Assembly (NCBI GenBank): GCA_021773195.1
Contig: JAJFKN010000020.1
Coordinates: forward strand, 7,570 to 71,569
DNA length: 64,000 nucleotides
Origin: Gammaproteobacteria bacterium
GTDB lineage: Bacteria > Pseudomonadota > Gammaproteobacteria > JAKBBU01
Direction of reading: 5' to 3'
Position 1 is the stretch's first letter. Each line of letters opens with the position of its first letter. Position numbers and translations under genes: made by a program. Positions 4,379-5,722 of the stretch are shown here, piece by piece. The notes under the pieces were generated by a model. It was not told where the DNA came from, did not search any database, and worked only from the letters and a program-made list of their open reading frames with translations.

Positions 4379-5722
4379 TTATTGAGGTTTGTCCTTAGAT
4401 TGGGGCGCTGTGAATGGCGCCTCAATGTCGTTTAATACTTTTTTTTCTATCTTTTTTATTTCTGTTGTTTGGCTATTGGGCATTAGCATTTTCCCACTGG
4501 GGCAAAACGTCACGGTATAATTCACTTGATTAACCCCATCTTGAACATTGGCACAAGAAAAAGTACTGGATTTATCATCATAGGGAAAGACATAGGCAGA
4601 AGGACAGGCGTTTTTTAGCCAGACTAAGTTGGGCTGCACCTTAGAAACCCAATCGGGATTTTGTGCCACGCATTGCATAACAACGGTGGGGTCCGTGGGC
4701 ACCATGCCTGGGATGGCATCTTGCCAATTGACACAACCACAGCAGCTGCTGGGTTGTGCGTCATTGCTATAACAGGAAGCAGAATAAGGCCCAGAACAAG
4801 CATACAGGTTACCAACGGTTCCTGTCCCTGCTGCCGTAGCACAATTGTAAGGTGGTTGGCTGTAACTTTGATTACGCGCGCAAACTTCATCGCCGGTCCA
4901 ATATCCTAGAAATTTCCCGCAACTTAAGCCTGGGGTATTGCCAGAAATGGATGTGTCGGTTAGTCCACAAACAGTGCCGGCATCACTGCAATCACTATCC
5001 GTAGTGCAAGTGGCGCCGCCAGTAGTGACTCGACGGTAAGCACTGGAAGGCGCCGGTGGGACAAAATCCCAAGAACATCCAGCTAAGACGTTACTGCCAG
5101 TGCCGTGATTTTCAGAATTGCCTGGGGTGCCACAGAGGTATGGGTTATTGGTAGCGGTGGGCTGATCCGTAGTAATGGAAAGAGGGACGTTAATGCCATT
5201 GATGATGGTGAGATCATAATAATCGGCACGACCTTTGCTGAAAGTAAATTCTGCTACATTGGATGGCGTTGAAAATCCCACGCCCGGTTTACAAGCACCT
5301 TCATTAGAACCACAATCAGCCGTTGCGCAACCGCCACCATTGCAATCGGTACGCCCTGCAATACCACCGCTCCAAAATATATCCACATCGCCATCGGGCA
5401 CATTTATGGTAAAGGTAAAGCTATTATTAGGTTCTAATTTGTATTGGCTGGATTGAGGTGGATTAGGCATGGGGCTATCCCAAAAACATTGCATACCACC
5501 ACCAGTAGATATACATTGGGCGCCTGAGGGACAATCATTGTTGCTAGCACATACAGTGCCAGCGTTAGAATTATTGATGGCGGAACCGCCATGTACGCCA
5601 GGCCAAAGAGCAATGGGGCAATTATTAGTCACGGTAATAGTTCTTGAGGCGGCATCAGCGTAGCTCCACGATACTAGTAATATCATGAAAAAACCAACAT
5701 AAATCCGCAAGAAAATACCCAT
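4379..5722 (-). CDS. secreted cysteine-rich thaumatin-like (PR-5 family) protein with extra Cys/Gly-rich insertions
   Basis: Sec signal peptide. Ordered matches to thaumatin landmarks: ITVTNNCPIALWPG; FWSGGIAGRTDC...CATADCGS; AEFTFSKGRADYYDLTIINGINVPLSI; NACPSAYVFPYDDKSSTFSC...NYTVTFCP (C-terminal TFCP). Confidence 0.7.
   Translation of the reverse strand: MGIFLRIYVGFFMILLVSWSYADAASRTITVTNNCPIALWPGVHGGSAINNSNAGTVCASNNDCPSGAQCISTGGGMQCFWDSPMPNPPQSSQYKLEPNNSFTFTINVPDGDVDIFWSGGIAGRTDCNGGGCATADCGSNEGACKPGVGFSTPSNVAEFTFSKGRADYYDLTIINGINVPLSITTDQPTATNNPYLCGTPGNSENHGTGSNVLAGCSWDFVPPAPSSAYRRVTTGGATCTTDSDCSDAGTVCGLTDTSISGNTPGLSCGKFLGYWTGDEVCARNQSYSQPPYNCATAAGTGTVGNLYACSGPYSASCYSNDAQPSSCCGCVNWQDAIPGMVPTDPTVVMQCVAQNPDWVSKVQPNLVWLKNACPSAYVFPYDDKSSTFSCANVQDGVNQVNYTVTFCPSGKMLMPNSQTTEIKKIEKKVLNDIEAPFTAPQSKDKPQ

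Follow-up and report, generated by a model that had tools for sequence, protein, structure and literature searches.

We analyzed a 64-kb stretch of gammaproteobacterial DNA (the window) that carries a gene for a long thaumatin-like protein (TLP). The gene lies on the minus strand at 4379..5722, and its open reading frame (ORF) of 447 amino acids (aa), which starts with ATG, has exactly the boundaries given in an earlier, preliminary description of this DNA. That description had proposed a secreted protein of the thaumatin family. The comparisons reported here place the protein as a new, divergent, minimal member of the known but uncharacterized LegT-type subfamily of long TLPs. The gene and the encoded protein comprise the following features:

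4379..5722, minus strand: complete coding sequence of the long TLP, 447 aa and stop codon (from the ORF list)
5729..5732, minus strand: AGGA, a ribosome-binding-like motif 6 nt 5' of the ATG within an AT-rich leader (direct reading)
5651..5722, minus strand: signal peptide, aa 1-24 (MGIFLRIYVGFFMILLVSWSYADA), with predicted cleavage after ADA
5585..5650, minus strand: first two beta-strands of domain I, aa 25-46, with R27, N33, C35 and W40; aligns to ATFEIVNRCSYTVW of thaumatin
5438..5584, minus strand: insert 1, a 4-Cys loop, aa 47-95, with C58, C64, C70 and C79; gapped against thaumatin, plant and aphid TLPs
5132..5437, minus strand: core beta-sandwich and domain III, aa 96-197, with WSGGIAGRTDC, CATADC, AEFTF and DYYDLTIINGINVP
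4601..5131, minus strand: expanded domain II, aa 198-374, about 175 aa compared with about 50 in thaumatin; 13 Cys from C216 to C373
4499..4600, minus strand: C-terminal TLP strands, aa 375-408 (SAYVFPYDDKSSTFSC...NYTVTFCP), with D382/D383, C390 and C407; aligns to plant TLP C-termini
4379..4498, minus strand: basic C-terminal tail, aa 409-447, and stop codon; no counterpart in any of 24 aligned homologues

Membership in the thaumatin family was evident from both sequence and predicted structure. The Pfam profile PF00314 matched the protein in two stretches with 70.3 bits (E=2.4e-19; gathering score 27.4), and a phmmer search of PDB sequences found 21 TLP chains in all, including Mal d 2 (3ZS3, E=9.5e-15) and Pru av 2 (2AHN, E=3e-13). 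The phmmer match to plant TLPs consists of three collinear pieces (aa 29-46, 113-198 and 370-408), and the HMMER alignments with Mal d 2 and Pru av 2 are strongest over the core beta-sandwich and domain III. Aligning the protein by MAFFT with thaumatin and with TLPs of walnut and aphid gave the same landmark correspondence as HMMER. Because the PF00314 score, HMMER and MAFFT agree, the thaumatin landmarks are far beyond chance, and the four landmark alignments drawn in the preliminary description were reproduced by HMMER, MAFFT and the PF00314 model alike. An AlphaFold2 model built from a 25-sequence alignment reached a predicted local distance difference test score (pLDDT) of 86.1 and a predicted template modeling score (pTM) of 0.83. 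When this model was compared with the PDB using Foldseek, the best 27 matches were all thaumatin-family structures with a probability of 1.00 and template modeling (TM) scores of 0.59-0.70, normalized by target; the fungal TLP 7P23 and the bacterial TLP 7P22 were among these 27. The model has the three-domain TLP fold, with beta-sandwich I, disulfide-rich domain II and the domain III hairpin, and its domain II is much enlarged. Hence, the PF00314 score, the phmmer matches and the Foldseek matches rule out a chance resemblance to thaumatin. Both checks that the preliminary description had named for its family call, the profile search and the structure prediction, came out in its favor, and by sequence and model we regard the assignment as secure.

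The N-terminus reads MGIFLR-IYVGFFMILLVSW-SYADA followed by AS, and thus has one basic residue, a hydrophobic core (mean Kyte-Doolittle value of 2.68 across 10 aa) and an A-x-A site. In the AlphaFold model, aa 1-18 are unstructured (pLDDT <50) and the first beta-strand begins at residue 27. The hydrophobic core, the A-x-A site and the start of the first strand bear out the proposed Sec-type signal peptide, and signal peptidase would cleave the precursor after Ala24. A similar hydrophobic N-terminal segment is present in 103 of 120 long-TLP family members. The protein is not a lipoprotein, as its signal peptide contains neither a Cys nor a lipobox. The mature core is acidic, with an isoelectric point (pI) of 4.2, and the C-terminal tail has a pI of 9.2. 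A helix was predicted in the tail at aa 416-434 with low confidence (pLDDT ~65); this basic 39-aa segment may serve as a linker, anchor the protein or direct its secretion.

The protein has 26 Cys and roughly double the length of a canonical TLP, and the preliminary description had attributed this size to Cys-rich insertions. These are indeed present, but they are not idiosyncratic to this protein: each Cys of insert 1 and of the enlarged domain II is kept in 95-124 of 124 family sequences, with the four Cys of insert 1 kept in 112-116. Domain II holds twelve Cys besides the canonical C216/C373 pair, and 12 Cys of the long-TLP subfamily are kept in at least 113 of the 124 members. The motifs GYWT, CCGCxxW and YxYPYDDxSSTF are near-invariant in the homologues, and the window protein carries them as FLGYWT, CCGCVNW and YVFPYDDKSSTF. 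Since these Cys and motifs are conserved across homologues, the two extra segments are hallmarks of a subfamily rather than random expansions. We defined the long-TLP subfamily from our alignment A1 by the 4-Cys insert after strand 2, the enlarged domain II with conserved Cys, and the motifs, all of which the window protein possesses; it matched the A1 profile, which includes the window protein itself, with E=7e-143. The Pfam DX-module gave a weak match to insert 1 (aa 52-82), below threshold. Modeled alone, domain II reached a pLDDT of 76.6 and had no structural match in the PDB (best Foldseek E=4.6).

Canonical TLPs contain 16 conserved Cys that form 8 disulfides (PMC13148976). Ten of these Cys aligned robustly with residues of the window protein (C35, C127, C132, C137, C144, C197, C216, C373, C390 and C407); the six canonical Cys of domain II were aligned in one alignment and unaligned in the MAFFT one. 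To estimate disulfide pairing, we looked for Cys that are lost together in homologues (co-loss), which gave the pairs C35-C407, C127-C132 and C216-C373. Their counterparts in thaumatin are the disulfides 9-204, 56-66 and 126-177. The pairing of the 16 canonical Cys, another check named in the preliminary description, is supported by co-loss for three pairs, with ten Cys placed. Further disulfides at 58-64, 281-294, 309-328, 317-327 and 330-351 are suggested by co-loss.

A review gives five acidic-cleft residues, one Arg, one Glu and three Asp, as defining TLPs and covers the function of the cleft in canonical TLPs (PMC13148976). The cleft residues of the window protein are R124, E158, D167 and D170 in the core region and D382/D383 near the C-terminus. 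D382 is conserved in all 124 long-TLP members, D383 in 120, E158 in 117, D170 in 116 and R124 in 84. The third cleft Asp, an Asp in the 'LVDGFN' of Mal d 2, is replaced by N175, and 103 of the 124 family members also have Asn at this position. Hence, the complete five-residue cleft is absent, and the acidic-cleft Asp positions of the preliminary description were overstated: four of the five residues are in place, and the fifth is lost in this protein and in most of its family. Thaumatin itself has Lys at the fifth position, and the five-residue cleft therefore marks an antifungal subgroup and not the fold family. The family-wide Asn at this position would favor binding or recognition over glucanase activity. 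We infer that the cleft is a retained ligand-binding site with altered chemistry, at which binding would be likelier than hydrolysis.

The preliminary description had considered bacterial TLPs to be rare. The only NCBIfam match of the protein was NF045527, 'Dot/Icm T4SS effector LegT' (E=8e-60, 203.1 bits), which covers model positions 348-770 of 776 and does not reach the equivalog cut-off of 1200 bits; a 776-aa LegT-like protein scores 855 bits with the same model. We found 69 homologues, including proteins of Aquicella and Legionella named 'thaumatin family protein' by NCBI. Homologues with 34-45% identity over ~88% of the query came from Aquicella lusitana, Legionella brunensis, L. hackeliae and many metagenome-assembled genomes (MAGs). 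A scan of the GTDB species representatives with a degenerate pattern confirmed 138 TLP loci. Of the 80 loci listed, ~26 belong to Legionella, Legionellaceae or Legionellales by title and 9 to Coxiellaceae, and the rest to Oligoflexia, Thermoanaerobaculia, other Acidobacteriota, Myxococcota, 'Deltaproteobacteria' and Burkholderiales; Polyangiaceae are also among the lineages with homologues. An exhaustive profile search of 1.84 billion cluster representatives (50% identity) returned 2387 hits with E<=1e-3, of which 515 had E<=1e-30. A crystal structure of a bacterial TLP exists (7P22, from Amycolatopsis rifamycinica), a thaumatin motif in Legionella has been published (PMC2824747, PMC4256840), and legT (lpg1328) has been tabulated among the Dot/Icm substrates (PMC2824747). 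Given the 138 loci, the 515 clusters, the NCBIfam and NCBI names and this literature, bacterial TLPs of the long type are neither rare nor unannotated. A limited literature search found no biochemical, structural or ligand study of long TLPs and no literature on 7P22.

We also found the long architecture in eukaryotes, namely in a transcript of Physarum polycephalum (P0056) and in the basidiomycetes Athelia psychrophila (P0071/P0075, on a 629-kb contig), Auriculariales sp. and Atractiella rhizophila. The long TLPs from this amoebozoan and from basidiomycetes (P0056, P0071/P0075, P0072 and P0074) are 36-52% identical among themselves and to the bacterial proteins, and P0036 has a GPI-like tail. 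This spread of long TLPs across domains of life appears to be undescribed in the searchable TLP literature. The preliminary description had raised the possibility of horizontal acquisition from a eukaryote and proposed a phylogeny against eukaryotic TLPs to examine it. In neighbor-joining trees of 126 sequences (366 columns, 100 bootstraps), neither the window protein nor any named bacterial sequence fell into the smallest clade that contains the named eukaryotic long TLPs, in 100 of 100 bootstraps. The window protein grouped with its nearest relative P0002 with only 23% bootstrap support. Its closest homologues are 42-45% identical, those with a name are bacterial, and the contigs that encode the nearest one, P0002, have a gene content of bacterial type. 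The GC content at third codon positions (GC3) of the gene is 0.404, compared with a window mean of 0.413 +/- 0.052. That the GC content of the gene as a whole is elevated is due to codon position 2 (0.533), which reflects the amino acid composition of the protein (Gly/Ser/Thr/Ala/Pro/Cys). A recent transfer from a eukaryote to the bacterium is therefore not supported, given the native GC3, the bacterial named homologues and the separate eukaryotic clade; the gene is probably an old resident of its lineage and not a recent eukaryotic import.

The gene is flanked or accompanied in the window by the following features:

3750-4373, plus strand: lipobox-bearing SLT_4 lytic transglycosylase, convergent with the TLP gene, 5 nt between the two
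6051-6791, minus strand: plsC, 5' of the TLP gene on the same strand, 328-nt spacer
6804-7343, minus strand: gmhB, upstream of the TLP gene on the same strand
16259-19224: glyQ-glyS, with ~8.9 kb of accessory genes between it and gmhB-plsC
52897-53430: dsbB
23522-24856; 13834-15390; 19617-20183; 20896-22182; 22728-23378; 28243-29097; 41878-43005; 43084-45021: Fic protein and ORFs without a Pfam match

The region around the TLP gene is variable, and the gene itself is accessory and solitary. The preliminary description had put it outside the conserved neighborhood, in convergent orientation to a lipoprotein gene and next to a dispersed repeat. We recovered all three features: the convergent gene is that of the SLT_4 protein, the repeat is a 21-bp tandem repeat at 3540-3656 that carries GCGGGAATGACG, and neither the 80 other TLP loci nor the loci of the closest homologues showed synteny. 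A tblastn search with 15 window proteins against 81 TLP loci found a single gmhB, ~5 kb from the TLP gene (L008), and the neighborhoods of the closest homologues (P0002 and P0017) are unrelated to the window. These results rule out a conserved operon or conserved synteny for the TLP gene. In a relative (L089), glyQ, glyS and gmhB are contiguous, and glyS and gmhB overlap or abut, whereas this usually contiguous cluster is split in the window; both relatives examined lack a TLP gene at this cluster. The gap between glyQS and gmhB-plsC (window 7499-15390) contains genes for two major facilitator superfamily (MFS) transporters, PadR, an AbiEii/AbiEi pair and a 518-aa ORF without a Pfam match. At the locus of P0002 (L082, 6339-11403), the TLP gene lies between genes of the patatin-like phospholipase and sulfatase/phosphodiesterase families, with upstream ORFs that have no Pfam match, and the whole looks like an effector or secreted-enzyme neighborhood. 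On the strand of the TLP gene, a consensus scan found no match to a sigma-70 promoter; promoter and terminator scans around the gene gave matches at or below the shuffled expectation, and an Rfam scan of the 64-kb window returned no RNA families.

The 21-bp tandem repeat (3519-3677 region) has 5.6 copies with 97% matches and follows a hairpin resembling repetitive extragenic palindromic (REP) sequences, TTCCCGC-cttc-GCGGGAA. The motif GCGGGAATGACG occurs 4 times, compared with 0.22 occurrences expected, and related short arrays are found in the intergenic regions at 45161-45220, 46756-46792 and 62215-62265. The GCGGGAATGACG arrays are a dispersed repeat family, and the 21-bp repeat is a possible variable number tandem repeat (VNTR) marker. 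The window contains two AbiEii/AbiEi type IV toxin-antitoxin pairs (9536-11318 and 40023-41677) with a gene GC content of 0.35-0.40 compared with 0.434 for the window, and these low-GC patches suggest mobile accessory islands. A YhgA-like (Transposase_31) gene at 35773-36684 is a further sign of genome plasticity. Scattered among the housekeeping genes are a Fic-domain protein and seven sizeable ORFs that lack a Pfam match; four of the seven have no NCBIfam match either. Such a mixture is typical of effector-rich Legionellales genomes. The best non-self match of GlyS is 56% identical and comes from a Legionellales MAG, and the relatives identified by way of GlyS have genes for ankyrin-repeat giants, for Fic and for the mevalonate pathway. 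The preliminary description had spoken of a host-associated gammaproteobacterium. The organism is a deep-branching gammaproteobacterium, and a host-associated, Legionellales-like lifestyle is plausible, with indirect support from the GlyS kinship, the Fic protein, the ORFs without a Pfam match and the ankyrin and mevalonate genes of the relatives.

What could this protein do? We think it fairly probable that it is an acidic protein, exported by Sec and oxidized by DsbB, that binds glycans and has its site of action beyond the cytoplasm, on a polysaccharide of a host or competitor. The fold, the export signal, the conservation of the cleft and the accessory status rest on the results above, and the secretion route, the ligand and the biological role are what we infer from them. 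The precursor would be exported by Sec and oxidized in the periplasm by DsbA/DsbB (dsbB is present in the window), yielding a very stable protein with ~13 disulfides. It would then be released, most plausibly by type II secretion, or displayed on the surface. Its cleft, walled by the enlarged domain II, would bind a glycoconjugate or polysaccharide from a eukaryotic partner, which could be the protist host, a fungus or a competing organism, and canonical TLPs provide the precedent of beta-glucan as the ligand. Several observations weigh against this proposal. The protein did not match the PROSITE pattern PS00316, G-x-[GF]-x-C-x-T-[GA]-D-C-x(1,2)-[GQ]-x(2,3)-C, and contains solely its core, as CATADC (aa 132-137). 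No type II secretion genes are visible in the 64-kb window. Because domain II is remodeled and has no PDB match, the ligand specificity may differ completely from beta-1,3-glucan. Finally, LegT, the one relative that has been studied, figures among the listed Dot/Icm substrates, which implies delivery to the host cytosol and not an extracellular role.

This last point leads to an alternative, in which the protein is, like LegT, a Dot/Icm (type IVB) effector that binds a host glycoconjugate or protein in the protist cytosol, with the unique tail as the translocation signal. LegT is the sole NCBIfam match (E=8e-60), it is listed among the Dot/Icm substrates (PMC2824747) and was assayed as a TEM1 fusion (PMC2475511). 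The nearest GlyS relative is a Legionellales MAG, the relatives have ankyrin, Fic and mevalonate genes, and the window itself encodes a Fic protein and many ORFs without a Pfam match. However, the score of 203 bits falls far short of the 1200 of the equivalog model, of which only the C-terminal thaumatin part is matched; the window protein has no counterpart of the first 345 residues of LegT. The 39-aa tail, which is unique to this protein and the one feature able to serve as a type IV signal, has only a weak acidic patch, and no dot/icm genes occur in the 64-kb window. A cleavable Sec signal and 26 Cys fit oxidative folding in the periplasm, and fit poorly with unfolded export by a type IVB system or with a reducing cytosol. 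A full-length LegT-like relative also has a signal peptide, and since the LegT assay used an N-terminal TEM1 fusion (PMC2475511), it would have masked such a signal peptide. We therefore consider a Dot/Icm effector unlikely.

A slightly less likely option still is a secreted anti-eukaryote toxin that permeabilizes the membranes of fungi or protists in the manner of osmotin and serves competition or predation rather than host manipulation. Canonical TLPs bind the cell wall and permeabilize membranes (PMC13148976). The TLP fold and the largely conserved cleft are compatible with this option, homologues occur in the predatory or soil lineages Oligoflexia, Myxococcota and Polyangiaceae, and Foldseek found a weak likeness of the beta-sandwich to the actinoporin and ostreolysin pore formers (E 0.008-0.1). 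These pore-former matches cover ~170 columns with TM scores of 0.15-0.17 normalized by query, and what points to such an activity in long TLPs comes from sequences and models. The known membrane-active PR-5 proteins are basic; the mature core of the window protein is strongly acidic (pI 4.2). It is improbable that the protein is a housekeeping component of the periplasm or envelope that acts on the cell's own glycans together with the SLT_4 lytic transglycosylase, PlsC and GmhB, since, although the adjacent genes are all envelope-related, plsC precedes the TLP gene in the same orientation with 328 nt between them, and gmhB lies ~5 kb from the TLP gene in the homologous locus L008, the gene order is not conserved at the 80 other loci or at the closest homologues, the distribution of the TLP is patchy and accessory, and gmhB-plsC is part of a conserved glyQS cluster that is free of TLP genes in relatives.

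Beyond the preferred reading of an extracellular glycan-binding protein, we tentatively put forward a broader scenario, which as a whole is doubtful. The long-TLP domain would be more than a PR-5 protein with additions, namely a distinct, mainly bacterial module for glycan recognition, marked by the 12-Cys domain II without a PDB match, the extra 4-Cys loop and the Asn at one cleft Asp position. It would have diversified in predatory bacteria and in those associated with protists (Legionellales, Oligoflexia, Myxococcota), and basidiomycetes and Physarum would have acquired their copies from bacteria through interdomain transfer. The window protein would then be a minimal form secreted by Sec and type II secretion, directed at a host cell wall or cyst wall and with a specificity other than beta-1,3-glucan.

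Work on thaumatins has regarded TLPs as belonging to plants, animals and fungi (PMC13148976), and Legionella genomics has listed the thaumatin motif merely as a 'eukaryotic-like' domain of unassigned function. As a single gene, the one described here adds one more member to an already annotated family of hundreds of bacterial and a few eukaryotic proteins. Its locus is a clean, minimal example, with a signal peptide and the domain and no accessory modules. Because the protein is minimal and the limited literature search found no report on the ligand or structure of the subfamily, it is a convenient construct for determining both for the LegT-type domain. Such a result would tell whether Legionellales use this domain extracellularly or inside the host.

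Among known systems, the closest comparison is with LegT (lpg1328, NF045527) and the TLPs of Legionella, Aquicella and Coxiellaceae, which share with the window protein the 4-Cys insert and the enlarged 12-Cys domain II. LegT has its thaumatin domain, which is of the same type, at the C-terminus, and the LegT-type relatives likewise start with signal-peptide-like segments. The window protein differs from them by the lack of an N-terminal region of 250-345 aa, which in some contains Ig-like or ASH-type domains, and from LegT by its score (203 bits against the cut-off of 1200) and its own basic tail of 39 aa. Canonical TLPs (thaumatin 1THW, Mal d 2 3ZS3, Pru av 2 2AHN, osmotin 1PCV and PR-5d 1AUN) have the same fold, with TM scores of 0.64-0.70 by target. 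The canonical L-type proteins share the motifs, the strand order, at least 10 of the 16 Cys, the cleft Arg, Glu and two Asp, and the signal peptide. Identity to canonical TLPs in structural alignments is only 15-18%, and the window protein has a domain of ~385 aa instead of ~205 aa, 26 instead of 16 Cys, an extra 4-Cys loop, a domain II more than three times the size, Asn175 in place of the cleft Asp, and the PROSITE pattern solely in its CxT[GA]DC core.

The long TLPs of Physarum polycephalum and the basidiomycetes have the same enlarged domain II, are 36-39% identical over ~89% of the window protein and match the LegT model over the same region. They differ in their Ser/Thr-rich or GPI-like (glycosylphosphatidylinositol-like) C-termini, and the Physarum protein P0056 lacks several Cys of the bacterial type (C127 is gapped and C216 is replaced by Ser) and has a shortened 4-Cys loop. 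The TLP 7P22 of Amycolatopsis rifamycinica has a thaumatin fold like that of the window protein (sequence E=1e-5). Unlike the window protein, it comes from an actinobacterium, is of canonical size (~220-244 aa), lacks the insertions of the long subfamily and is 15% identical in the structural alignment. Because 7P22 is a bacterial protein, the thaumatin fold is not confined to eukaryotes.

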